Positions 1,024 to 31,587 are shown, counted from the stretch's first letter. The stretch: DNA of 32,000 nucleotides from an uncultured archaeon (GCA_964373795.1 CAYJVY010000002.1:106504-138503), one strand, 5' to 3'. The notes: generated from the letters alone by a model not told the origin. Made by a program: numbers and translations.

Positions 1024-3624
1024 ATGCCTATTTCACTTAAAGAAGAATCTTCAGTTATTGGAAGAACTGCTAAAGATTTGAAAAAATATGGAGAAAAAGG
1101 AACTGCTTATTTAGGGAAAACAGTTCTATCAGCTGGAGATAATCCAACTCTTGGAAGAAAAGTTTTAGTTGATATTTCCAAACCCCATTTAGTTTTAATT
1201 TGCGGCAAGAGAGGAGGGGGAAAATGTCTTCACGAAGACACTTTAATAACTCTTGACAACGGAGAAGAAATTCCAATCAAAGAACTTGAAAAAAATAATA
1301 ATAAAATAATTGCTTTAAATGATAAACTAAAATTAATTCATACGTATAAAACAGAATTTTACAAACGAGAAGTGAATAAATTATTGCAAATAAAGCTGCG
1401 AACTGGAAAAGAAATAAAGTTAACTCCTGAACACCCTATTTTTACTATTGATGGATGGATTCAAACAGAGGAGTTAAATGTCGGCAGTAGAATTGCAACT
1501 CCTAGAAAAATTAATTTTATTGGAAATGAAGTCCTGGAAGAGTTTAAAGTAGTGCTGCTTGCATACTTAATTGCAGAGGGACATTTAGGAAATAAAAAAG
1601 TATTGTTTTCAAATCAAGATGAGAAAATTATTCAAGAATTTAAAGAATGTATTAAAAAATTTGATGAAAACCTTGTTGTAAAAAAACACGGCAAAGACTG
1701 TTTTACTGTTGTACAAAAATCCATTAAAAGAAAAATTGATTACGTAGTAAGAAGTGATGGAAGGTTTGCAAAAGGAAGTAAATTTAATAAAAAAAGCGTT
1801 ACTGAATGGCTTGAAGCATTTGAACTCTATAACAAGAAATCAGAAAAAAAATTTATTCCAAAAGAAATATTCAAATTAACTAAAAAAGGATTAGCACTAT
1901 TTTTGAATAGATATTTTAGCTGTGATGGAACAATTTATTTTGATTCAAATACAAAAACTTACAGAATTAGTGTTTCTTCTGCTTCTGAAATGCTTGCAAG
2001 GCAATTGCAAAGCCTGCTTTTAAGATTTGAAATGGTTGGAGTTTTAAGAAATAAAAAAAGTAAGTTAAATGGAAAAGAGTTTAAAAGCTTTGAATTAGAG
2101 TTAAAAGGAAAAAATGTTGAAACCTTCATTAAAGAAATTGGATTCTATGGAAAAAAAGAAATTAAACAAAATGAAGCCTTAAAAAAAATAGAAAACATTA
2201 AAAGAAATACAAACATTGACACAATTCCAAGAGAGATATGGAAAACTTACAGGCCAAAAAGTTGGACTGAAATTGGTAAAAAAATTGGCTATGCAATTCC
2301 AAAGAGTTTAAGGGAAAGCATTTATTATTCTCCTTCAAGGCAAAAATTATTGCAAATAGCTAAAGCAGATCATCAAGAAAAAATAGTTGAACTAGCTGAA
2401 TCAGATATTTTTTGGGATGAAGTAATTGAAATAAAAGAACTTGAAGGAAAATTTAATGTATATGATATTGTTGTTCCGGAATTCCATAACTTTGTTGCAA
2501 ATAATATAATTGTTCACAATTCTTATTCAATGTCAGTTGTAATGGAGGAATTTTGTTTACAGCCTGCAGAGATTAGGCAAAGAATTTCTGTTATAACAAT
2601 TGATACTGGGGGAATTTTTTGGACTTTAAAATAACCGAACGAGGAAGAAAAAAAATTATTAGCTGATCCTGAGTGGAGGTTAGAGCCTCAAGGAATGAAA
2701 AATGTTCGAGTATTAGTTCCAAAAGGAAAGCTTTCATTTTATAAAGAAAAAGGCTTGCCAGTTGACGGAGCATTTAGTTTGAATATTTCTGAATTAAATG
2801 TAACTGAATGGATGGCTTTATTTCAATTAACTTGGAGTGACCCAGAAGCAGTGTTAATTACAAGAGTAATTGAAAAACTGCAAGAAGAAAAAAAAACTGG
2901 ATACGGGTTTGAAGAAATAGTTAAAGAAATTAAAGCTGATTCAGAGTCACAGGATTTAACTAAAAAAGCTTTAGCTAACAGGTTTAAAGTAGCTGATTCT
3001 TGGGGGTTGTTTGAAAAATATGGTACTCCAATTAAAGAAATTGCTACTCCTGGAATGCTTTCAATAATTGATGTTTCATCGTATAGTCAATCAATTGGAA
3101 CTGAAGGAACCAGAGACATTGTAGTTGCAATGCTTGGAAAAAAATTATTCGAAGAAAGAATGTTGTATAGAAAAGAAGAAGAAATTAATTTAATTAAAGG
3201 CAAGCAAAGAATTAGTGAAATGCCTATTGTTTGGATGTTAATAGATGAAGCGCATATGTTCATGCCAAAAGATAGGGAAAGCCTTGCATTAAAAGTGTTG
3301 CTTGAATGGGTTAGAGTAGGCCGTCAACCAGGATTAAGCTTGCTTTTAGCAACCCAGATTCCAAACAAATTACATCCAGATGCAATTTCTCAATGCGATT
3401 TATTTATTTCTCATAGAATGACTGCTCAACCAGATATTCAAGCAGTTTCACAGTTAAGGCCAAGCTATTTACATCAAAACTTTGACAAATACTATGAAGA
3501 AATGCCTAAAGAAAAAGGTTATGCATTAATTTTAGATGACAACACTGAAAGAATTTGGATGATTAGAATCAGGCCAAGGCTTACATGGGATGGAGGAAAA
3601 ACAGCTTCAGTATTTAAAGAGTAA
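1024..3624 (+). CDS. HerA/FtsK-superfamily (DUF87/COG0433-like) P-loop ATPase, intein-containing and interrupted by an in-frame TAA at 2632-2634
   Basis: The Walker A motif GKRGGGK|S is split by the intein. Walker B is VWMLIDEAHMF, followed by LLLATQ and a C-terminal RPRLTWDGG motif. Track ORFs 1003..2634 and 2695..3624 are in the same frame (both positions are 1 mod 3) and are separated only by one TAA and 60 nt of open frame. ATG at 1024 (MPISLKEE) is a more likely start than the TTG at 1003. Confidence 0.7.
1225..2520 (+). mobile_element. Intein (432 aa) with LAGLIDADG homing-endonuclease domain, inserted in the ATPase P-loop
   Basis: It begins with Cys (CLHEDTLITLDNG, block A) and has block B at KLTPEHP. 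LAGLIDADG motifs are LLAYLIAEGHL (1555-1587) and FLNRYFSCDG (1900-1929). Block F is VYDIVVPEFHNFVAN. It ends with IVHN followed by Ser. Removing it restores GKRGGGKS. Confidence 0.9.
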
Positions 3625-8035: not shown

Positions 8036-9477
8036 GTTTCTAAAACCCTTGTTTCAACATCTCCACATAAAATTCCGCCATAACCTATTACTCCAAAAAA
8101 ACAATTAGCATAATAATTCAAACTGTAAACTTTGTTGAATGCAGGAACAAATTTATAGTTTGGAGATCTAAAAGCATCGTCTTCAAAGTTTAAAATTAAA
8201 AATTGTGCATTAGAGTCTTTTAAAAACATGTAATCGCTTGAATTTAAATCTTTTTTTTGCAAAAACTGTAATCCTTGCACTGAAAACTTGTCAGTGAAAG
8301 CCTCTAAAGGCAATCCAGTTAGAGTTTTATTTCCTAGATTAGAGTAAAGTCCTAAGCCTTCATTAAATGCTGGTTCAGCTAAAATCATTCCTTGAACGTT
8401 TTGAGATTCAAGCCAGTTAATTGCTCTTAAATCGTTTAAAGTGATTTTTGCAAAACTAGAAGTAAAATCAACATTTATTACAGAGAAAAATAAAAACAAT
8501 CCAAAAAAAACAATTAATCCAAAAAAAACCCAGAACTTGTTAAACAATTCATTTTTTTTAAACAATACAAGCAATGAAACTATTCCTACACTTAAAAATT
8601 TTGGTTGCTCCCAAGGTCTAAGCAATCCACTTAAAAAAAAAGCAATTGAAGCAAAAAAAGAAATCAATGAAAAAATAAACCAATAAATTTGAGTTCTAGT
8701 GCGCAAATCAAATAAAGATAAAATTATTAGAGGCAAAACGAAAACAATGATTTGAAAAGCCATTACAGGCAAGTAATTAGAAAAATTAATTGCAACAAAG
8801 TCTGCTCCAGAAATTGTTCCAACTGCATTTAATTTAACTCCATTAAATACAAAAAGCCATACAAGTAATAGAACTGCAAAAAAGGGAATGAAGGTTTTCC
8901 AAAACTTTTTTTCTTTAAAAAACGCAATTAAAAAAGGCAAGGAAAACATTATAAAAGCCAAGTAATTCCAAAACAAATTCAAGGAAAGCAAAAGAGAAGC
9001 AATTCTCCATTTATCTTTTAAAGCTAAAACTAAGATTAATGGAAAAACAAAGAAAACAAAAACTTCAGGGCTTTGAGAAGCAGCAGAAATAATTGTAGGC
9101 AAAAAAGTAATTAACAGAGCTCCAACTAGTGATTCAAGTACTCCAACAAATCTTCTAAACAAGAGAAAAAAAGTAACAGCATTTAAGGAACTTAAAAAAG
9201 GCAAGAAAAATAATGCCAAAAGCCAAGAAGAAAAACCTGTAAAAACACTCATTGAAGCAATAATTGAATGATAGAAAGGAGGATAAGTATAAGGAATTAA
9301 AGGATTATCTGGATCAAATTCAGGAATAAAACCTGTTACAGTAATGTTTTGTGCAAGTTTAATATGATAATTTGAATCATAATACAAAGGCATTTGAAAC
9401 ATTAAAATAGGAAGAAAGCGTAAAATAAGTGAAATAAAAAAAATCAATAACAAAATTAATTTTTCAGTTTTATTCAT
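8002..9477 (-). CDS. Polytopic membrane protein, GT-C-fold glycosyltransferase-like (ArnT/PMT-like)
   Basis: The 491-aa protein has more than 10 predicted TM helices. Its first loop is MPLYYDSNYHIKLAQN, and a soluble C-terminal domain of about 150 aa follows. No WWDYG motif is present, so I do not call it AglB. Confidence 0.45.
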   Translation of the reverse strand: MNKTEKLILLLIFFISLILRFLPILMFQMPLYYDSNYHIKLAQNITVTGFIPEFDPDNPLIPYTYPPFYHSIIASMSVFTGFSSWLLALFFLPFLSSLNAVTFFLLFRRFVGVLESLVGALLITFLPTIISAASQSPEVFVFFVFPLILVLALKDKWRIASLLLSLNLFWNYLAFIMFSLPFLIAFFKEKKFWKTFIPFFAVLLLVWLFVFNGVKLNAVGTISGADFVAINFSNYLPVMAFQIIVFVLPLIILSLFDLRTRTQIYWFIFSLISFFASIAFFLSGLLRPWEQPKFLSVGIVSLLVLFKKNELFNKFWVFFGLIVFFGLFLFFSVINVDFTSSFAKITLNDLRAINWLESQNVQGMILAEPAFNEGLGLYSNLGNKTLTGLPLEAFTDKFSVQGLQFLQKKDLNSSDYMFLKDSNAQFLILNFEDDAFRSPNYKFVPAFNKVYSLNYYANCFFGVIGYGGILCGDVETRVLETHSTNVQKYSE

Positions 9478-20631: not shown

Positions 20632-21429
20632 ATGAATTTTTACATGAGTTTAGGCATAATTTTCTTTGGAATAAATCTCATTTTATTAGGATGCATTCAA
20701 CCTCCAATTGAAAGCATTTCATATTATGAATTAGTTAAAGAAGATCCTCTTTGTTCAAACAACGAATGTTCATCTGAATACATTGTTTTTTCAAATGGAT
20801 TGGTTTTTGAAAAACTAAATAAATCAACAAACTTAAAAGCTGGAAAAACATTTATTGGAACAGCCCCTCAAGATAAAGTTCAAGAAGTAATGGATTTTGT
20901 GAAAAACAATATTCCAAATTCTTTTGAAGAAGGATGTGATAACTGTCAAGTATATCATGTATTCTATCACAATGGAATTCAAACCAAAGTTTATTCTAAT
21001 TCTATTGAAAAATCGGTAAAAGAAGTAAAAGAATTGGAAACCAAAACTCAAGAATTAATTAAATCTGCAGAAGCAAAAGAAAAATTATTGTTTAAGATAG
21101 TATTTTTAAGAAAAACTTTACCTTACAAAGATTTACATCTGTTTGGAGACGGAACAGCTTTACTTGAAGACTTTGGAGAGAAAAATGGAGAGCTTTTAGC
21201 AGCAAAAATTTATTCAATTGATGGAACAAAAGTAAAAAAATTTGAAACTCTTTTAACGGAAAAATTTTTTTCAGAAAAAGACTCATTTAATGGTTGCGTA
21301 GAAAAAGGATTTAATTATGGATATGTTGAGGCATTAAAAGGTGACAAATATAATTTGGTTCAAACATGTGGAAATGGAGAAAACGACGCAGATAAATTAT
21401 TTAATGAATTAATAAAAGAGGTTAGGTGA
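20632..21429 (+). CDS. Secreted or lipoprotein-like hypothetical protein with paired Cys
   Basis: The hydrophobic N-terminus ends in LILLGC. The two halves each carry Cys pairs. It is the first gene of a tightly spaced three-gene plus-strand operon. Confidence 0.55.
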   Translation: MNFYMSLGIIFFGINLILLGCIQPPIESISYYELVKEDPLCSNNECSSEYIVFSNGLVFEKLNKSTNLKAGKTFIGTAPQDKVQEVMDFVKNNIPNSFEEGCDNCQVYHVFYHNGIQTKVYSNSIEKSVKEVKELETKTQELIKSAEAKEKLLFKIVFLRKTLPYKDLHLFGDGTALLEDFGEKNGELLAAKIYSIDGTKVKKFETLLTEKFFSEKDSFNGCVEKGFNYGYVEALKGDKYNLVQTCGNGENDADKLFNELIKEVR

Positions 21430-21433
21430 AAAA

Positions 21434-22351
21434 ATGAGTAAACGGAATTACTTATTGATTTTATTATTTTTAATAATTTTAATTCAACACACCTTTGCAA
21501 TTGCAATTGTTGCTCCAACTGTTTACATAGTAACTCTTTCAATTACAGCCTTTATCGCAAATATATTAATTTCTTTAACTGCCTGGACTGCAATAAATGG
21601 ATTTACATCAAAAACTTATGCTGGAAAAAAGCTTTCAGAAATTCTTTCATTCATTTTTTCAGGAGTAAAAAATTCAATTATTTACGTTTTTTCACTTGCA
21701 ATTGTTTTAATATTCATTAAACCACTTGATTTAGAAAGCTCTATTGCAATTGGAATTCTTTCAAGCGTGATTGCATTTGGTTTATTTCTTTTAGTGGATT
21801 CAAAAAAAATTATTTTAAGTGATTCAAAAGCTCGAATTCAAATTATTCAATCAGTTTTATTTTTTATAATTTTTATTTTTATTACTTCAAGTGCGTCAAT
21901 ATTTTTAGCTTTAGAAACAAAGCTTCTTACGACAAAAGAACCAATTAAGGAAACACAAATTATTCAAGTATTGTCTCAACCAATTTCTCCATTAACAGAT
22001 GCATTTGAATCAATCACTGAAAAATCAGTTTCAAAACCCCCGACTGAATCAGCCATTAAAAAAATTGAAGAACCAACGCAAGACATTGGACAAAGTTTGT
22101 GGATTCAACCTATGAATTCAGAAAAATGCAAAGTTGAAATTGCGAATCAAGTTTTCTCAATCAATCCAAAATTTGAATGTTTTTCAAAATCAAATTTAAC
22201 TGAAAAAACGTTTTGTCCAGTTGAAATTAAAAGAAGCGAAATAAGTTTATTGAATGGAATTGCACAAGTAAAAGAAAGTGGTTCTTGTAGCGGAGAAGCT
22301 GAAATAACTTTGAGCAACACTGGTTTTACTGCAGTAAAGATATTAAAGTGA
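21434..22351 (+). CDS. Polytopic membrane protein with a Cys-containing C-terminal extracytoplasmic domain
   Basis: It has five to six hydrophobic helices followed by a soluble tail of about 130 aa. It starts 4 nt after the previous stop. Confidence 0.55.
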   Translation: MSKRNYLLILLFLIILIQHTFAIAIVAPTVYIVTLSITAFIANILISLTAWTAINGFTSKTYAGKKLSEILSFIFSGVKNSIIYVFSLAIVLIFIKPLDLESSIAIGILSSVIAFGLFLLVDSKKIILSDSKARIQIIQSVLFFIIFIFITSSASIFLALETKLLTTKEPIKETQIIQVLSQPISPLTDAFESITEKSVSKPPTESAIKKIEEPTQDIGQSLWIQPMNSEKCKVEIANQVFSINPKFECFSKSNLTEKTFCPVEIKRSEISLLNGIAQVKESGSCSGEAEITLSNTGFTAVKILK

Positions 22352-22357
22352 ATTAAA

Positions 22358-23767
22358 TTGAATGAATTAAAGCTTTTTGAAAAGGATTTGCAAAACATTT
22401 TACAAGAAAATAACATTTTTAGTAGTGAAGCAATTGTTTTAAAACAAAACGAAAACTCTGACTTAATTCCAATTGCAAAAACCTCAAGCAAGGAATTTCT
22501 TGAAGAAATATTTTCTTCAAAGGGCCCTTTTTGGACCGTTTATTCAAATCTTGGGTTTGGGATTCCGCCATCTAATTCAAAATATTTAAATTTTGTTGGA
22601 AATAAAGTTTTCTTTTGCAAAAATGTTGAAAAAAAATTTTTTAATTTCATTGGGTTAGAGAAAAAAATAATTTTAAAAAATAATAAAATAAAGGAAGAAA
22701 TAAGATTTAATTTAATTAATTTAATATTTTTACTTCTAACTCCAATTGAATTAATTAAACAATTTTTTTCAAATTTAACTTCAATATTAAAAATTAATGA
22801 AAAATTGGATGAATTCATCGAGTTTTCAATTAAATCAAAAAATTACTGGAATGAAAATAAAGCAAAAAAATTTTCAAACCCGGTTTTAATTGCTTCAGAA
22901 GCATTAAACAATTCATTAAAGGCAATGGAGTATTCATTTTATTCTTCTTTTGCATTGCATTTAAAAATTAAATTAAAAAATTCAAAAGCATGGAAAGAAT
23001 GTGAATTAGAAGAACTTGAAAAAATCTTGAAAGAAGACTCAAAAAAATTGAGTGAAAAAACTCAACAATATGGGTTTTATTCTACATCGCCTTACGATAT
23101 TTCCCTTCCAAGGCTTTCCGAAAATCCTTACAATATAATTGAATATGGAATTCAAACAACTCCTCAAAACCCTGCAATTAAGTGGAGAGAAAATTGTAAA
23201 TTTTTGGCTGCAAGATATTTAGACATTCAAAGAAAAGCTTATCTTCAAATAGGAAATGAAAGTGGTTTAAAGGATTTAGTGTTCTTCTTAACAACTAGTG
23301 AATTAAATGAATTGAAAAACAATTTTGAAGAACTTAAAAAAATTGCTATTGAAAGAAAAACAAATTATGATTTAACAATTAAAAGTAATTTATCAAAAGA
23401 AATTATTTATTTTAAAGAATGGATTTTAACAAATTTAAATAAATCACAAGAAATTATGGGAGAAAGTGTTGGAAGTCCTTTAATTGTTCAAGGCAAAATT
23501 GTTTGCATAAATTCTTTCAAAGACTTTAACAAAGACGTAAATGAAAAAATAATTGTTTCAAGCACCTTAAACTCTGAACTAGTTACATTGTATGGAAAAA
23601 TTAAAGGAATTATTAGCGAAGGCGGCGGACAATTAGCTCATGCAGCAATTGTTGCAAGAGAACAAAAAATGCCTTGCATTGTTCAAGTTAAAAATTTTGA
23701 AAAATTAAAAGAAGGACAAAAAGTTGAGTTAAATGGAGAAACTGGAGAAATAAAAATAGTGAATTAA
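22358..23767 (+). CDS. PEP-utilizing-enzyme family protein (PpsA/rifampin-phosphotransferase-like) with the swivel phosphohistidine domain but no ATP-grasp domain
   Basis: The C-terminal GIISEGGGQLAHAAIVAREQKMPCIVQV is the PEP-utilizer mobile-domain signature and contains the phosphoryl-carrier His. The central QQYGFYSTSPYDISLPRLSENP and DLVFFLTTSEL resemble the yGhR..eldi..PRW.EdP and diFfLt..EL motifs of PpsA/RPH-like proteins. Confidence 0.7.
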   Translation: MNELKLFEKDLQNILQENNIFSSEAIVLKQNENSDLIPIAKTSSKEFLEEIFSSKGPFWTVYSNLGFGIPPSNSKYLNFVGNKVFFCKNVEKKFFNFIGLEKKIILKNNKIKEEIRFNLINLIFLLLTPIELIKQFFSNLTSILKINEKLDEFIEFSIKSKNYWNENKAKKFSNPVLIASEALNNSLKAMEYSFYSSFALHLKIKLKNSKAWKECELEELEKILKEDSKKLSEKTQQYGFYSTSPYDISLPRLSENPYNIIEYGIQTTPQNPAIKWRENCKFLAARYLDIQRKAYLQIGNESGLKDLVFFLTTSELNELKNNFEELKKIAIERKTNYDLTIKSNLSKEIIYFKEWILTNLNKSQEIMGESVGSPLIVQGKIVCINSFKDFNKDVNEKIIVSSTLNSELVTLYGKIKGIISEGGGQLAHAAIVAREQKMPCIVQVKNFEKLKEGQKVELNGETGEIKIVN

Positions 23768-25095
23768 GGAGTTGAAAAACGAGCAAAACTCCAAGGAACA
23801 TTAAATGCTTTGCAGTGAATTGAAACAGAATTAAATTCAGAAATATTTGTTTCAGCAGGAAGCTCATAAACTTGTTTTCCTTTAATGCTTTTCAATTTTC
23901 CTAATTCAATTCCAACTTTAATGTCTTCTCTAGTTGTTTTCTCGGAATTCTTTGTTAAATACACTACTAAATCAGGGCCATTTGGAGTGGAAAAATCTTC
24001 TTCAAAAACAATTGAATATTTTTCTCCTTCTTTTTGCAGTGAAGCTTTTCCTGAAGTCATGTAATTAATATTTTCAAATTGGCCTGATTTAACTGTTACA
24101 GCTTTAAAAGAAGAATCTTCTTTGACTGTTTCAGTGGAAGTAAAAGGACTTACAACTCCTTCCTTCATTAATTTTTTCATTTCTTCAACAGCTGTTTCCA
24201 TTGGCAAATCTTTTGGCTTTGAATCAATCATTTTTTGAAATTCTTCTTTGCTTAAAACCTTTGAATCAGAACCCAAATTAGAGGGAGAATCTTTTGCTTT
24301 TCCGGATTTTAATGCATTACTCCAATTAGTTGTTATTGTAGGAAAACTAAAGTAAAACAAAACTAATGCAAACAAAATAATTATTACTCCAACAACTGTT
24401 CCAAGTGACTTGAATTGTTTTTTTTGAATAGTTTTAAAGAAAGCAATTAATTCAAACAAGAAAACTAATAAAGTAATTAAAAGCACTAATCCTCCAGCTA
24501 AATTAAAAAGAAGTGAAGGATTAATTATTCCAAAATGTAAAACCGAAAAAATAAATGCGAAATAAACTAATCTGTGAAGCAATTGCCAATTCTTAAAACC
24601 TAAAACTTTGAATTGCATAAAGTCATTTGAAGTTAAAAACATTAAAAAGAAAATAAACATTGCAATTGCACCCCAAATAATTGGATTTTGAAATGGATTC
24701 AAATCTTGATAAGGAGCTAAAAAGTTTCCACCAAAATAGGTTCGAATTACTGTATTAACGTGAAGAAAAATAAAAATAAATCCCCAAATTCCAAACATTC
24801 TTCTATGTTGAACAAAATTAAATTGAGGAAAAAGCTTTGCAACAGGGCCAAGCAATAAAGCTATTCCAATCAAGGTTACTCCAGTTAAGGCAGCTCCCCT
24901 CAAAATAGATGCATCCAAATTTGAAGGGGTGATTAAGAAAAAATATTGATATGCAATTTCTATTGCGCCGAAAAGAATTGCAAGAAAACTAAAAAAAGCC
25001 ATGCATTTATATACTTGAATTCTTTCCGGACTAAAAACGTTTTCAAGAAAAGATTTTTTTGGTTGAGAAACTGGTTGAGAAACTTCTTCAGGCAT
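23764..25095 (-). CDS. Ferric-reductase-like (MsrQ/YedZ-type) transmembrane domain fused to a DM13 domain
   Basis: The TM part has paired His motifs: HRRMFGIWGFIFIFLHV and LLHRLVYFAFIFSVLHF. The C-terminal part (SGQFENINYMTSGKASL...FSTPNGPDLVVYL...LGKLKSIKGKQVYELP...FNSVSIHCKAFNVPWSFARF) matches the DM13 pattern. Confidence 0.7.
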   Translation of the reverse strand: MPEEVSQPVSQPKKSFLENVFSPERIQVYKCMAFFSFLAILFGAIEIAYQYFFLITPSNLDASILRGAALTGVTLIGIALLLGPVAKLFPQFNFVQHRRMFGIWGFIFIFLHVNTVIRTYFGGNFLAPYQDLNPFQNPIIWGAIAMFIFFLMFLTSNDFMQFKVLGFKNWQLLHRLVYFAFIFSVLHFGIINPSLLFNLAGGLVLLITLLVFLFELIAFFKTIQKKQFKSLGTVVGVIIILFALVLFYFSFPTITTNWSNALKSGKAKDSPSNLGSDSKVLSKEEFQKMIDSKPKDLPMETAVEEMKKLMKEGVVSPFTSTETVKEDSSFKAVTVKSGQFENINYMTSGKASLQKEGEKYSIVFEEDFSTPNGPDLVVYLTKNSEKTTREDIKVGIELGKLKSIKGKQVYELPAETNISEFNSVSIHCKAFNVPWSFARFSTP

Positions 25096-25151
25096 TCAAA
25101 AAATATACAGAAAAAAATATATAAAACAATTCCAAAGCCAAGTGTTTGATT

Positions 25152-28100
25152 TTATTCCGTGCCACCTAATTTCATTAAACTCATAATGTCTTGAAGGGAT
25201 AAAATTATGTTTGGAACTTGAGTTAATGGTTCAACTTTTACTTGTCCAGTGAAAATTCCTAAAATAATTTGAGTAAACATTTTAATTGGAATACTCACAT
25301 CATTAAAGCTTGGAGGTCTAAAACCTTCTTCTTCCCAGTAAGGTTTTATTTCTTGTTCTCCTTCAACTTCTTTAATTATTGTGGACAAGAGGTTGTAAAA
25401 ATAATCAAATTCAACTAAAACTGTTACACTTAAATTATCTAGAGAAGTTGTTTCATCAATTGCTTTTACTTGAATTAATTTTTCTTTATCAACTGTGAAA
25501 AGCATTCCGGATACAAGTTCTTCTTTATCCGCTATTTTAATTGCAATTCTTGCCTGTCCACCAAACCTGTCACTAATTCTATTCACTAAACCAACAACTT
25601 CTGGAACTTGCCTCATTAACTCTATGTCTTCAGGAGTAGGACCTTTAATTTCTCGTTTGAATTCTTCTGCAATCATTTTCTTAAATTCTTCCTTTGAAGG
25701 AAAAAACCATGTTTTCATGTAAGGACTTAAAACATTTAATTTTTTGTTTTTGCCTTCACTGAAAAAAGTTGTTTCAGAAAATTTTTCAAAAAATCGAACT
25801 TTTCCATTAGATGATTCAAATTCAAAGCTTAAAAGTTGTGCTTCTGAAGGCCATTCAGTTTTTCCCAAGCAATTTAAGTTTCTAGCAATTTTATCAGTGT
25901 TTTGCAAAAAGCTTTCATAAACAAATCTAATTGATTCTCCGTGAAAACGAAATTGGTTTGGATTTTTTTCAACCAACTCTGAAAAAAACCATGAACTAAA
26001 ATCATTATTCAATGAATTCTGTAATTCAATTCTTTCCTGAACTGCATCTTTTAATTCTTTTTCACACCAAGAATTATTTAACTGTAAATCTGATTGTTGT
26101 CTGAATTCATTAAATTTTTCAAATTCTTGTCCCCATCCATTAAACCAAATTCCTCCATGAAATTCTCCAGAAGTTTTCTTTCCACAGTTCCCACCCATTT
26201 CAAATTGCGAAATTGTTTCTGGCCAAGAATCTGATTTCACGCAACGAAAAGAAACAGTATTCCTTTTATCCTCAGAACATCTAGGAGAAGCACAATCTGA
26301 ATCTGTTTCACAAGATTTTTGTTCACGCGATTCACAGCCATTCAACCAATCCCCATCAACATCAAACCATCCTTGCTGACATTGACACCAACCTCTTTCT
26401 GAATTACATAATTGATTTGCATTACACTTAATGTTTTCACAAGAAGGAGGCAAGGGTTCACTAACTAAACTATCAAGAGCGGTTATAAAAGAAGTAATAG
26501 GCAAAAAAGATGCAACTCCATTTAATTTTGAATCTACTAAAAGATTTGCATCTCTTAAAGCATTTTCATCCTTAACTGGAACTGGTTTGTTTTTATCCAT
26601 TGATTCTCCAGGGAGAGGAGGTTGAATTGGTTTAGTTGGCTGAGAAGGTTGAATTTCTCCCTTGCATTGACAAGATTCTCCATCCAAGTATTGTCCTTCA
26701 AGGCAATTTATTTGAGGACATTCACAGTTAAACGTTTGAGGATCAACTATGCGAGGAGAGTCACATTTCCAGTTTCCTTTATCGTAATTGCATTTCACGC
26801 ATTCAGGGTAAAGGGAGTTACATTGATTGTCTAAATTATTATTTAAAACCTGATTTAAACAAGAATTCCATTGCTTGCAGGATTTTCTGCAACCACCTCC
26901 ATAAAATTCATCTTGACAGTCATAACAAGGATCACAAACACTTGAACATTTTGATTCATTGCAATTATTACAAGTACTGCAAACGCTTTCACATGCTTGA
27001 GGATTATTTGGATTTGCTTCATTGCATTGCGAACAAGCATCGCATTCAGTTTTACATTGAGTTCCAGAGCAATTCCAACAACCATTTTCTCCTCCACAAG
27101 TTTTTTCACAAAGCCTTCCACAGTCCTTAAAATCAACACAATCAGGATCCTCACAATCTCTAAATCCGTCGTCATCGTTATCTAATTCATCTTTACAAAA
27201 AGAATTTTTTTCATTTCCACCTAAAGCTGAAATACATTCAGCATTTTTACAAGAATTTTCTTGTCCACAAAATTCTTCTTTGGATTGACAATAAGAATTA
27301 GTTCTTTGAATTTCATTCTTAAATAATTCACGTCTATAATTTGTTTGCGAAATTTTTTCCTTCTTAAAATCAGAAGTGAATTCATTAAAAAGTTGTTCAA
27401 ATCGAGCAGTTAAATCTGTTACAGTTAAACTTGACTGCAAGTCTTCTCTGTTAACGCGTTCGGTTAAAGCATTAACAATGTTTTCTAATTCAATTCTTTT
27501 AACTCCAAGGCTTCCGCCTTCAACATGTCTTGCAGCATTAGATTTTATGTCGTGCAATATATTTCGCATGCGTTTTAATAGTTCTTCATCGCTTAAGTCC
27601 TCCAAATTTTCTCTTTCAAAAGGAAATTCAAATTCCATTGGCTTTGAAAACCTAAAATCCAAGTAAGTATTAAATCCATGCCATTGCTGTGAAAGATTTT
27701 CATTTAAAACCCAATAAATTACTCCTTCATCTGATTCAAACAAAACTCCTCTCCATTCAAGTTGTTCTTCTACTCCAGAAGATTTTTCAAAAAAGCTTGT
27801 CATTAATTTTTCACAAGAATCCTTATTTTTCCACAAAAAATCATTTAAAACTCTTTGATAATTAGCTGTCTTTGAAGCTAAGGATTGCAAGTCTTCTTCG
27901 CGTTTTGAAGAAAGATAAGAGTAAAGCGAATTATTAATGTCTTGCAGTAATTGTTTTGCATTAATCTCTTCTTCAGCTGTTTTAAACTGCATTTGAAAGT
28001 CAATCCAGTAAAATGCTTGAAGCGAATCCTTGTATTCAGCCATGTGAGGAAAAGCATTAAACATAATTCGAATTTTTTTGCCTTCAAAAATTGTTTTCTC

Positions 28101-28709
28101 CCATCTAGGCAAAGGATTTTTCACGCGAACAGATTTTTGAAGATTTTCAACCCAAACCCATTCCTCAGAACCAGTTGGCTGTCCAAAAACTTTTTGAACT
28201 TCTTCTGCGCTCCAACCACGAAAATTAAATTCATCTCGCCTTGACTCTTCTCTAAACAATGAATCAAGTTTTTCCCCTAATACTGCAACTCTCTTTAAAT
28301 CCTCTTTAGCCAAAGCTTCACGAATTTGAGTTAAAAGCTTTAATGCTTCTTCATTGTTTTCAGCTTTGAACTCTGCTTCAATTTCATTCAATATTAAGTC
28401 AAGTTTTTTTAAATCCCTCTTCAAAAAAGCTTTTTCTGCTTCATCAAATAATGAAAAAAGTTTTTCATTTGAAGGAGGTTCTTCTACTACAACTTTTTGC
28501 TGGGAATAAAAATTCGCATAAAGTTTTTCTCTAAAAGAATTCATTAAAACCCTTAACTGTAAAAAAGTTAATTCCCCTGATTCATATCTTTCAGCCACAG
28601 AAATTAGTTCAGAAAAATTTGATTGCAAATCTTCATTTGATTGAGCAAAAACAGGAATAGAAAAAATCAAACAAAGAAATGCAAATACAAGGAAAAACCT
28701 TAAATGCAT
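25152..28709 (-). CDS. Giant secreted cysteine-rich surface protein (1185 aa from the MHL start)
   Basis: The signal peptide is MHLRFFLVFAFLCLIFSIPVFAQS. I preferred this start over the track start at 28814, which would overlap the divergent ogg gene. Region 26664-27290 has 36 Cys in 209 codons by my count and includes DELDNDDDGFRDCEDPDC. A Pro-rich linker follows, then an EGF-like Cys module at 26184-26441 (11 Cys). Confidence 0.8.
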   Translation of the reverse strand: MHLRFFLVFAFLCLIFSIPVFAQSNEDLQSNFSELISVAERYESGELTFLQLRVLMNSFREKLYANFYSQQKVVVEEPPSNEKLFSLFDEAEKAFLKRDLKKLDLILNEIEAEFKAENNEEALKLLTQIREALAKEDLKRVAVLGEKLDSLFREESRRDEFNFRGWSAEEVQKVFGQPTGSEEWVWVENLQKSVRVKNPLPRWEKTIFEGKKIRIMFNAFPHMAEYKDSLQAFYWIDFQMQFKTAEEEINAKQLLQDINNSLYSYLSSKREEDLQSLASKTANYQRVLNDFLWKNKDSCEKLMTSFFEKSSGVEEQLEWRGVLFESDEGVIYWVLNENLSQQWHGFNTYLDFRFSKPMEFEFPFERENLEDLSDEELLKRMRNILHDIKSNAARHVEGGSLGVKRIELENIVNALTERVNREDLQSSLTVTDLTARFEQLFNEFTSDFKKEKISQTNYRRELFKNEIQRTNSYCQSKEEFCGQENSCKNAECISALGGNEKNSFCKDELDNDDDGFRDCEDPDCVDFKDCGRLCEKTCGGENGCWNCSGTQCKTECDACSQCNEANPNNPQACESVCSTCNNCNESKCSSVCDPCYDCQDEFYGGGCRKSCKQWNSCLNQVLNNNLDNQCNSLYPECVKCNYDKGNWKCDSPRIVDPQTFNCECPQINCLEGQYLDGESCQCKGEIQPSQPTKPIQPPLPGESMDKNKPVPVKDENALRDANLLVDSKLNGVASFLPITSFITALDSLVSEPLPPSCENIKCNANQLCNSERGWCQCQQGWFDVDGDWLNGCESREQKSCETDSDCASPRCSEDKRNTVSFRCVKSDSWPETISQFEMGGNCGKKTSGEFHGGIWFNGWGQEFEKFNEFRQQSDLQLNNSWCEKELKDAVQERIELQNSLNNDFSSWFFSELVEKNPNQFRFHGESIRFVYESFLQNTDKIARNLNCLGKTEWPSEAQLLSFEFESSNGKVRFFEKFSETTFFSEGKNKKLNVLSPYMKTWFFPSKEEFKKMIAEEFKREIKGPTPEDIELMRQVPEVVGLVNRISDRFGGQARIAIKIADKEELVSGMLFTVDKEKLIQVKAIDETTSLDNLSVTVLVEFDYFYNLLSTIIKEVEGEQEIKPYWEEEGFRPPSFNDVSIPIKMFTQIILGIFTGQVKVEPLTQVPNIILSLQDIMSLMKLGGTE

Positions 28710-30330: not shown

Positions 30331-31587
30331 ATGTTGCGGGATGATTTGGCATTGCAAAAACTTGAATTAGAAAAACGGTTAGCAGAACCCTACGTTGAAC
30401 GCGAAGCGCAGTTCCGGAATTTGAATAGTGATTTGATTAAAGTAGTGATTGGCCCGCGTCGTGCCGGAAAGTCTTTTTTTGTAATTCACCAGTTACAAAA
30501 ATTGGGACCGTTTGGTTACGTGAATTTGGACGATGAACAGTTGGCCAAGGTCGAGAATTTTAACGAGATTCTGGTGGCAGTGGATGAATTATATGGCTCG
30601 CCGCGCTATTTATTATTGGATGAAATTCAAAATTTTCCCCGTTGGGAGCTGCTGGCAAACCGGTTGCAGCGACAGGGCAGAAACTTGTTTTTGACAGGCA
30701 GCAACTCAAACCTATTAAGCAAAGAACTTGCAACTCATTTGACAGGGCGGCATACGCTGGCACACGTTTTTCCGTTTTCGTTCCGAGAAGTTCTGGGATT
30801 GGAAAAACGAGAACTAACAACCACTGAAAAAAAAGAAAAATTGCTGACCTATGCACAATATGGAGGCTTTCCAGAGCCGGTAGTTAAAAAAATGGATTTT
30901 GCGGATTACATTGCCCGCCTTTTTGATGCAGTGGTTTACAAGGACATTGTTTCACGATATAAAATAAGGCGCATTAAGACCCTGCAAGAAGCCGCGCGAA
31001 TACTGTTTGCAAACATAGCAAAGGAATTCTCGTATACTTCACTGAAAAATTCGGTTCAACAGACAAGCGTCATCACACTCCAGCAATATGTCTCATACTT
31101 GGAAGAGGCATATGTTTTTTTTGGAGTCCCGCGTTTTTCCTTCAAAGTAAAAGAACATGAACGCTCCAACAAAAAAATATACTGTTTTGACAATGGCTTC
31201 ATTTTCGCCAAGGCATTCAAAGCAAGTCCGGACTGGGGAAGACTGTTTGAAAACCTAGCCGCCATTGAGCTAAAAAAAGCAGAAATCGACGGAAAACTCG
31301 ACTTTTATTATTGGAAAAACCCGCAGCACGAGGAAGTAGATTTCGTCATAAAAGGAGGCACAAAAATAATCCAATTAATTCAGGTCTGCTACGATGTTTC
31401 CGATTCCGAAACAAAAAAAAGAGAGATTCGCGCACTAATAAAAGCCAAACAGGAACTAAAATGCAACAACCTTTTGGTTCTTACAAACGATTATGAAGCT
31501 GAAGAATCGGCAGAATGGTTCGGAGAAAAAGCAAAAATAAAATTCATGCCGTTGTGGAAATGGCTCATAACAAAAGAAGACAGGTGA
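30331..31587 (+). CDS. AAA-superfamily ATPase with a DUF4143 C-terminal domain
   Basis: Walker A is VVIGPRRAGKSFF and Walker B is LLLDEIQNFPRWE. Other motifs are LTGSNSNLLSKELATHLTGRH and a C-terminal EVDFVI. G+C is about 47% in the line I counted. Confidence 0.8.
   Translation: MLRDDLALQKLELEKRLAEPYVEREAQFRNLNSDLIKVVIGPRRAGKSFFVIHQLQKLGPFGYVNLDDEQLAKVENFNEILVAVDELYGSPRYLLLDEIQNFPRWELLANRLQRQGRNLFLTGSNSNLLSKELATHLTGRHTLAHVFPFSFREVLGLEKRELTTTEKKEKLLTYAQYGGFPEPVVKKMDFADYIARLFDAVVYKDIVSRYKIRRIKTLQEAARILFANIAKEFSYTSLKNSVQQTSVITLQQYVSYLEEAYVFFGVPRFSFKVKEHERSNKKIYCFDNGFIFAKAFKASPDWGRLFENLAAIELKKAEIDGKLDFYYWKNPQHEEVDFVIKGGTKIIQLIQVCYDVSDSETKKREIRALIKAKQELKCNNLLVLTNDYEAEESAEWFGEKAKIKFMPLWKWLITKEDR

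Follow-up and report, generated by a model that had tools for sequence, protein, structure and literature searches.

An MsrQ-type ferric-reductase domain fused to DM13, a predicted outward electron conduit, and its probably coincidental giant cysteine-rich neighbour in an uncultured archaeon

The closest described relative of the system considered here is MsrQ (YedZ) of E. coli, a six-helix ferric-reductase domain (FRD) protein that takes its input from Fre or from quinone-linked donors and passes electrons outward to the molybdoenzyme MsrP, its extracytoplasmic partner from the same operon. H91 and H164 of MsrQ are the ligands of a single outer heme, whereas R77, R78, S135, W147 and H151 line an FMN site that replaces the inner heme (PMC12525009). 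An arginine in place of the first canonical histidine defines the YedZ/STEAP group of the FRD superfamily, which also takes in the NOX enzymes, and the STEAPs are ferri/cupric reductases (PMC3591440). The same 2013 survey of FRD architectures lists fusions to Rieske, Fer2, DOMON and other domains, and DM13 is never mentioned in it. DM13 domains (PF10517) occur together with DOMON in the animal proteins Skeletor and Knickkopf, or alone in secreted bacterial proteins; these are extracellular and carry a conserved cysteine, and a part in electron transfer has been predicted for them (Pfam description; Knickkopf papers). The 32,000-nucleotide stretch analysed here (the window; GCA_964373795.1 CAYJVY010000002.1:106504-138503, from an uncultured archaeon) encodes a fusion of an MsrQ-type FRD to DM13, and immediately before it a giant secreted cysteine-rich protein (Table 1). 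The original prediction treated the two as one extracytoplasmic redox system, with the fusion as an electron conduit dedicated to the giant. The reading preferred here, with a probability of roughly 0.6, is that the two genes are independent and neighbours by chance, and that the fusion is an MsrQ-like outward conduit, most likely with a role in envelope defence.

The fusion matched both PF01794 Ferric_reduct (aa 90-184, 39.5 bits, cut-off 28) and PF10517 DM13 (aa 340-438, 59.7 bits, cut-off 25) above the gathering scores, which bears out the predicted joining of a Ferric_reduct/MsrQ-type domain to DM13. In an alignment of 21 homologues, H112, H174, H187, R98, R99, S156 and W170 were invariant, and when E. 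coli msrQ was aligned with seven family members, the MsrQ positions R77, R78, H91, T134, S135, W147, H151 and H164 were likewise invariant and identically spaced. The fusion and MsrQ therefore have in common the six-helix FRD core, the heme residues corresponding to H91 and H164 and the residues of the FMN site. The two paired-histidine heme-b motifs of the original prediction did not survive this comparison: H97 is not conserved among the 21 homologues, and the first canonical histidine position is held by the invariant R98. H97, one residue ahead of that arginine, was considered as a fourth heme ligand and rejected, and the four conserved histidines in two bis-His pairs that mark a two-heme NOX/FRE-type FRD are absent from the fusion. 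The two-heme reading is wrong because three conserved histidines with an arginine pair, and an arginine at the first histidine position, make up the MsrQ/STEAP signature. By its residues the fusion is a one-heme-plus-flavin FRD of the MsrQ/YedZ-STEAP subgroup, with cofactor binding predicted; STEAP2-4 also combine one outer heme and an inner flavin with arginine for the first canonical histidine. Foldseek against the PDB placed STEAP1 and STEAP2 on top, followed by Dcytb and cytochrome b561.

The fusion differs from MsrQ in its covalent attachment to DM13, in a partial match to the NCBIfam MsrQ equivalog NF003831 that scored 53 bits against a cut-off of 130, and in an additional transmembrane helix. 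The AlphaFold2 model, built from the 21-sequence alignment (pLDDT 86), contains seven transmembrane helices, two linker helices and a beta-sandwich at aa 333-439, and the hydropathy profile also shows seven helices where six had been proposed. Lysine and arginine counts of 3, 0, 3, 0, 2, 0 and 3 across the loops indicate an N-in, C-out topology, from which, with seven helices, it follows that the seventh helix is predicted to place DM13 outside the cell, as in the animal and bacterial DM13 proteins. This DM13 differs from theirs in its attachment to an MsrQ-type heme domain, and, as the partner of the FRD, it is a small beta-sandwich without a known cofactor, in contrast to the molybdoenzyme MsrP. 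The FRD-linked DM13 domains carry an invariant motif, IHC.AFNVPWS (H427-C428 at 23812-23817). C428 is invariant even when stand-alone DM13 proteins are included, whereas the histidine of the His-Cys pair is replaced there by tryptophan. Fold matches of DM13 in the PDB and BFVD were to Cu,Zn-SOD and CHRD beta-sandwiches at sub-significant levels (E 0.03-0.9, TM-score 0.3-0.5), and the DM13 profile found no relative among PDB sequences; the likeness of the modelled fold is a weak lead and not a result.

A protein search with the fusion retrieved 36 other homologues at 37-55% identity, 32 of them annotated with both PF01794 and PF10517; they belong mainly to metagenome-assembled genomes (MAGs) of Thaumarchaeota/Nitrososphaerales, with one from Aenigmarchaeota, and carry the NCBI name 'DM13 domain-containing protein'. 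Another 15 loci came from GTDB species genomes, among them MAGs labelled Peribacteria, Kerfeldbacteria, Magasanikbacteria, Patescibacteria and Gammaproteobacteria, and a metagenome scan yielded mostly contigs of 1-2 kb with little context. The hosts thus differ from those of MsrQ, being archaea (Thaumarchaeota, Aenigmatarchaeota) and MAGs labelled candidate phyla radiation (CPR) or Gammaproteobacteria. Neighbours were tallied over 24 distinct FRD-DM13 loci besides the window; many of these are short, so that the counts are minimum values, and loci related to one another are only partly independent.

Different architectures were observed within the family. DAO(FAD), Rieske [2Fe-2S], Ferric_reduct and DM13 were found by Pfam in one polypeptide of about 900 aa in L016, L019 and L027, an architecture that, from its domain order, is a predicted complete cytoplasm-to-outside electron wire in a single chain. 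By tblastn, fused DAO-Rieske was detected in eight loci (L013, L016, L018, L019, L020, L024, L025 and L027), all from MAGs with a CPR or Gammaproteobacteria label. Near the FRD-DM13 gene, Rieske is encoded separately in three of the 24 loci (L001, L022 and L034) and additionally in L050 and L051, and DAO in one further locus of the 24 (L014). In L014, L022, L024 and L025 the FRD gene is directly followed by a separate gene for DM13, which carries a lipobox signal of its own; these split forms independently confirm, at the level of gene organisation, the predicted cooperation of FRD and DM13 and the predicted export of DM13. Together with the conserved MsrQ residues and the outside location of DM13, the lipoprotein genes directly after FRD make the fusion plausible as an outward electron conduit, as had been proposed. 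The long forms resemble STEAP2-4 in having an N-terminal cytosolic dehydrogenase fused to the FRD, which is an F420/NADPH-type domain in the STEAPs and DAO-Rieske here; STEAPs lack DM13, and metal ions are reduced directly at their heme face. The input of the long forms also differs from the Fre or quinone-linked input of MsrQ. By these comparisons the window fusion is assigned to a conserved family of predicted FRD-DM13 electron conduits, as a short-form member.

Stand-alone DM13 lipoproteins on two bacterial contigs (L045:7189-9442 and L049:4074-5210) are directly preceded by a conserved secreted protein of about 231 aa that has no Pfam match and is possibly an outer-membrane barrel, and their DM13 shows the motif IWCQ instead of IHC. 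The pair in L045 has a Crp-family regulator ahead of it and YceI and an exported MsrB behind it.

Methionine-sulfoxide reductase genes recur in the FRD-DM13 loci, an association shared with MsrQ. An msrA gene lies inside L013, L022, L025 and L036 and an msrB gene inside L014, L019 and L027, giving an MsrA or MsrB gene in seven of the 24 loci; msrB is also present in the DM13-only fragments L040 and L045, the latter with the order stand-alone DM13 lipoprotein, YceI and MsrB with a signal peptide. As a rough estimate and not a computed statistic, over loci that are not fully independent, seven of 24 is well above chance, with at most 3% expected per locus for one or two msr genes per genome of about 1 Mb. 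No msrP (molybdopterin oxidoreductase) gene was found among the Pfam-scanned neighbours in the window or the related loci. The closest fusion homologue (P0002, 48% identity) has a NiSOD gene 16 nt upstream, HhH-GPD/Ogg-type glycosylases are encoded near FRD-DM13 in L012, L019 and the window, and copper genes accompany it in two of the 24 loci (L001 and L029). In the former (L001:9425-19222), the Thaumarchaeota-like homologue P0004 sits in a copper cluster with YHS, FRD-DM13, Rieske, a P-type ATPase, HMA and two cupredoxins.

Homology to MsrQ suggests how such a conduit would work. A cytoplasmic reductant would reduce a flavin at the inner face of the six-helix domain (R98, R99, S156, W170, H174), and the electron would then pass to a single b-type heme near the outer face, with H112 and H187 as ligands, and from there to the C-terminal DM13 beta-sandwich (H427-C428), held outside the membrane by the seventh helix. 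DM13 would take the place of MsrP as the terminal extracytoplasmic acceptor or reductase. In the long forms the electron input would be built in as the N-terminal cytoplasmic DAO(FAD)-Rieske module, and the window archaeon would use a separate donor. Because MsrA, MsrB, NiSOD and 8-oxoguanine-type glycosylases recur as neighbours, the most likely job of the family, judged from gene context, would be a reductive one, to defend the cell envelope or repair its components after oxidative damage.

The giant begins at an ATG (N-terminus MHLRFF...), and open reading frame (ORF) and hydropathy agree on the predicted length and signal-peptide-like start; the hydropathy scan revealed no further transmembrane segment and no C-terminal anchor, and the homologues P0040-P0044 have comparable signal-like N-termini. 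Its N-terminal family domain follows the pattern GWS..FG.PT..WVW...P.WEK.IF.GKKI.I..NA.P. The protein contains 51 cysteines, 36 of them in aa 474-682 and 11 in aa 757-842, and the enrichment in the first block is extreme (binomial P ~3e-36) against a background of 0.8% cysteine, the mean of the 26 other window ORFs. This block, whose predicted count was reproduced, contains eight CxxC and six CxxxC motifs and three Cx3Cx2Cx2C units (at aa 552, 573 and 588), and the acidic cysteine motif DNDDDGFRDCEDPDC is present at aa 510-524 as reported; the proline-rich linker that follows was likewise recovered. The second block has the pattern C..NQ.C....GWC.C..GWF..DGDWLNGCES, and here the predicted 11 cysteines stand while the EGF-like designation does not. 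Neither the full-length giant nor its sub-regions matched any Pfam or NCBIfam model above its curated cut-off, the cysteine blocks (aa 474-842) matched no Pfam model even at E<=10, and no curated EGF-like, thrombospondin (TSP) type-3 or MopE-type repeat model fits them. Since no model matches, 'EGF-like' is a label of composition and not a domain assignment, and the proposed metal- or Ca-binding repeat type found no recognised model either. TRF detected no DNA tandem repeats in the cysteine blocks, its single match (26527-26575) falling in the proline-rich linker. The AlphaFold model of the giant, from a three-sequence alignment, was unusable (pLDDT 37).

An exhaustive HMMER search with the giant recovered 200 representative clusters (E<=1e-3), of which 74 reached E<=1e-30, mostly proteins of 900-2200 aa with common N- and C-terminal domains; P0041, for example, aligns to aa 34-1182 of the giant (E 6e-286). 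The giant shows homology over both terminal domains and the signal-peptide-like start that define this family. A word-indexed search, with the single sequence or a three-sequence profile, had returned three proteins only and suggested an orphan, a status that the exhaustive search overturned; with a query of such biased composition, the limit of 8000 candidates in the word-indexed search may have displaced true relatives, and orphan calls from word-indexed searches alone need caution. The cysteine content of the family has a median of 4.6%, with a maximum of 192 cysteines in one protein, and cysteine-richness is, on the sequences compared, a trait of the family. Of 75 family sequences, 33 carry the acidic motif DDD.D..DC.DPDC, at comparable positions (mostly ~aa 410-590). 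In the closest homologue, P0039 (47% identity; from a Diapherotrites MAG), most of aa 530-620 is missing, and the three Cx3Cx2Cx2C units of the giant (aa 552-598) are largely absent. The named relatives belong to an unnamed family (MDO8627260.1 from a Diapherotrites MAG; ABFQ65_00850 from a Nanoarchaeota MAG), and share with the giant the signal-like start, the terminal domains, the acidic motif and a cysteine-rich middle, which differs among homologues in length and content. The giant is best read as a member of an uncharacterised secreted family whose only named relatives come from DPANN MAGs. Its cysteine-rich middle, set between the two conserved domains, looks like a variable stalk, probably stabilised by disulfides or metal, in a surface or attachment protein. 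A DPANN surface or attachment role is plausible, and the giant is read as a surface protein unrelated to the fusion, in a host that is likely a DPANN archaeon, as indicated solely by the names of the homologues (Diapherotrites and Nanoarchaeota MAGs).

Conservation of the gene pair in other genomes had been set beforehand as the refuting test for the proposed coupling, and the pair was adjacent in no other locus examined. Neither a giant-family gene (by tblastn) nor a large cysteine-rich ORF stands beside FRD-DM13 in any of the 24 other loci, and neither FRD nor DM13 was found near the giant-family genes in the three loci with context (P0040 from a Nanoarchaeota MAG, P0041 and P0042), so that the claim of a conduit dedicated to the giant finds no support in the examined genomes. 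A conduit for the formation, isomerisation or upkeep of disulfide or metal sites in the giant was suggested by the position of the genes on one strand, 56 nt apart, which the ORF coordinates corroborate, and by the predicted extracytoplasmic location of both DM13 and the giant; a reductive conduit could in principle aid disulfide isomerisation in the manner of DsbD. Such dedication is nevertheless very improbable, as each family is widespread on its own and FRD-DM13 has its conserved partners in DAO-Rieske and Msr genes. The expected direction of the electrons is a further poor match, because MsrQ and STEAP proteins deliver electrons outward (for MsrQ-type domains, PMC12525009), whereas net formation of disulfides, more than 20 here, removes electrons and needs an oxidant. 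The spacer further suggests separate transcription, with a T-run behind the giant stop codon and, some 22 nt ahead of the fusion ATG, TTTATATA. The TATA-like element predicted for the fusion is thus present, and TTTATATA is plausible as an archaeal TATA box, although such a sequence is weak evidence in a genome of 30% GC; the spacer may hold a terminator for the giant and the fusion's own promoter. A scan with sigma-70 promoter and intrinsic-terminator models, which are unsuited to archaea, performed no better than on shuffled sequences.

Several observations weigh against chance neighbourhood and envelope defence as the explanation of the locus. A lineage-specific pairing of the giant and FRD-DM13 may exist, because the giant-family loci inspected numbered three, none from a close relative of the window genome, and P0039 lies on a 2.7-kb contig without context. 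Literature searches found no demonstrated redox activity for DM13 or FRD-DM13 proteins, and nothing that joins DM13 with FRD, MsrQ, Msr, methionine sulfoxide or archaea. The MsrA and MsrB neighbours in the CPR-labelled, Gammaproteobacteria-labelled or archaeal loci look cytoplasmic, without a signal peptide, and a common stress regulon may be all that lies behind the Msr link; within its 32 kb the window encodes neither a donor nor Msr, SOD, Rieske or DAO. A metal reductase is suggested by the copper genes of L001 (P-type ATPase, HMA, cupredoxins), the main support for this alternative, and of L029 (CsoR-type repressor). An STEAP-like Fe(III)/Cu(II) reductase in which DM13 binds or presents the metal, for uptake or copper homeostasis, would agree with these neighbours, with YHS and a Cu-type P-ATPase among those of L001 and a second P-type ATPase homologue in L029, and with the top structural matches to the ferri/cupric reductases STEAP1 and STEAP2 (PMC3591440), the invariant His-Cys pair and the faint Cu,Zn-SOD resemblance of the model. 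It is regarded as unlikely, since copper genes occur in two of the 24 loci against Msr genes in seven, the histidine of the pair is tryptophan in stand-alone DM13, an adjacent single histidine and single cysteine make a poor metal site, and no metal transporter adjoins the fusion gene in the window. Somewhat less likely still is an action on reactive oxygen, either reduction or dismutation of superoxide at an SOD-like DM13 or NOX-like extracellular production of reactive oxygen. The NiSOD gene immediately upstream in the locus of the closest homologue, the many weak Cu,Zn-SOD/CHRD fold matches (E 0.03-0.9, TM-score 0.3-0.5) and the presence of NOX enzymes in the FRD superfamily (PMC3591440) speak for it; the fold matches are not significant, however, the SOD metal ligands are not conserved, DM13 having one invariant histidine, and the residue pattern is of the MsrQ/STEAP and not the NOX type. 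A tentative extension, well short of an even chance, is that FRD-DM13 would be a molybdenum-free analogue of MsrPQ, in which DM13 itself would act as terminal reductase, repairing oxidised envelope proteins or detoxifying oxidants. Its users, just as tentatively, would be small-genome lineages without respiratory chains (CPR, DPANN) and Thaumarchaeota, and the many-cysteine giant could then be one client of DM13 and not its dedicated partner; if true, this would be the first biochemical function for DM13.

Table 1. Coordinates of the two genes, their parts and the spacer in the window, and of the extended forms in related loci
Feature	Position	Strand	Basis
MsrQ-type FRD fused to DM13, 443 aa	23764..25095	(-)	Pfam, homologues, AF2
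Six-helix FRD core, aa 23-226	24418..25029	(-)	alignments, match to E. coli MsrQ
R98 and R99 of FRD	24799-24804	(-)	invariant; = MsrQ R77, R78
H112 of FRD	24760-24762	(-)	invariant; = MsrQ H91
W170 of FRD	24586-24588	(-)	invariant; = MsrQ W147
H174 of FRD	24574-24576	(-)	invariant; = MsrQ H151
H187 of FRD	24535-24537	(-)	invariant; = MsrQ H164
Seventh transmembrane helix of fusion, aa 231-265	24301..24405	(-)	AF2 secondary structure, loop charge
DM13 beta-sandwich of fusion, aa 333-439	23779..24099	(-)	Pfam, alignments
Intergenic spacer, 56 nt	25096..25151	(-)	sequence reading
Giant secreted Cys-rich protein, 1185 aa	25152..28709	(-)	ORF and Cys counts
Signal-peptide-like hydrophobic segment of giant, aa 1-23, MHLRFFLVFAFLCLIFSIPVFAQ	28641..28709	(-)	hydropathy scan
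Conserved N-terminal family domain of giant, ~aa 155-350	27660..28247	(-)	matched stretches, invariant columns
Cys-rich block 1 of giant, aa 474-682	26664..27290	(-)	36 Cys/209 aa
Pro-rich linker of giant, aa 683-756	26442..26663	(-)	12 Pro/74 residues
Conserved C-terminal family domain of giant, ~aa 756-1180	25170..26444	(-)	best-conserved family stretch
11-Cys block, start of giant C-terminal domain	26184..26441	(-)	Cys count
DAO-Rieske-FRD-DM13 single-polypeptide genes	L016:6522-9230; L019:4283-7030; L027:5474-8197		Pfam
DAO-Rieske-FRD, then separate DM13 lipoprotein gene	L025:6465-8717 + 8768-9346		Pfam

Other features were observed in the remainder of the window. Divergent from the giant gene, the segment 28793-29790 contains an Ogg-HhH (8-oxoguanine glycosylase) ORF of 119 aa that covers positions 2-98 of the 173 profile positions; the ORF after it overlaps by 4 nt and has no Pfam match, and the glycosylase may be truncated or frameshifted. 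Between 29000 and 32000 the GC content rises from about 0.30 to 0.375-0.40 at a gene for an AAA_14 + DUF4143 ATPase (30331-31587), a family also encoded within a few kb of FRD-DM13 in L012, L018 and L024, and this segment may be mobile or horizontally acquired. An intein ORF (Intein_splicing + LAGLIDADG_3; 1003-2634) is followed by a DUF87/HerA-like ORF (2695-3624), and the two probably represent one intein-bearing ATPase gene. Two neighbouring ORFs at 20632-22351 have no Pfam match; one product (265 aa, LILLGC, 7 Cys) is a putative lipoprotein, and the other (305 aa) has several hydrophobic stretches. They lie just upstream of a PEP-utilizers-domain gene that is convergent with the fusion gene.

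The fusion and the giant each fall in a family that the databases already contain, neither of which is characterised. For the window the outcome is mostly deflationary, as the redox system proposed for the giant surface protein appears to be an accident of gene order. The FRD-DM13 architecture itself was already annotated in databases, and the family-level picture of an MsrQ-type core, DAO-Rieske input and Msr linkage is put forward from genomic context. With it the family is sharpened to a predicted single-heme/flavin conduit with DAO-Rieske and Msr partners, in fused, split and ~900-aa all-in-one forms, and a testable hypothesis is obtained for DM13, a domain without demonstrated function. 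The family would bear on how reductive chemistry outside the membrane is powered in organisms without quinone-based respiration.

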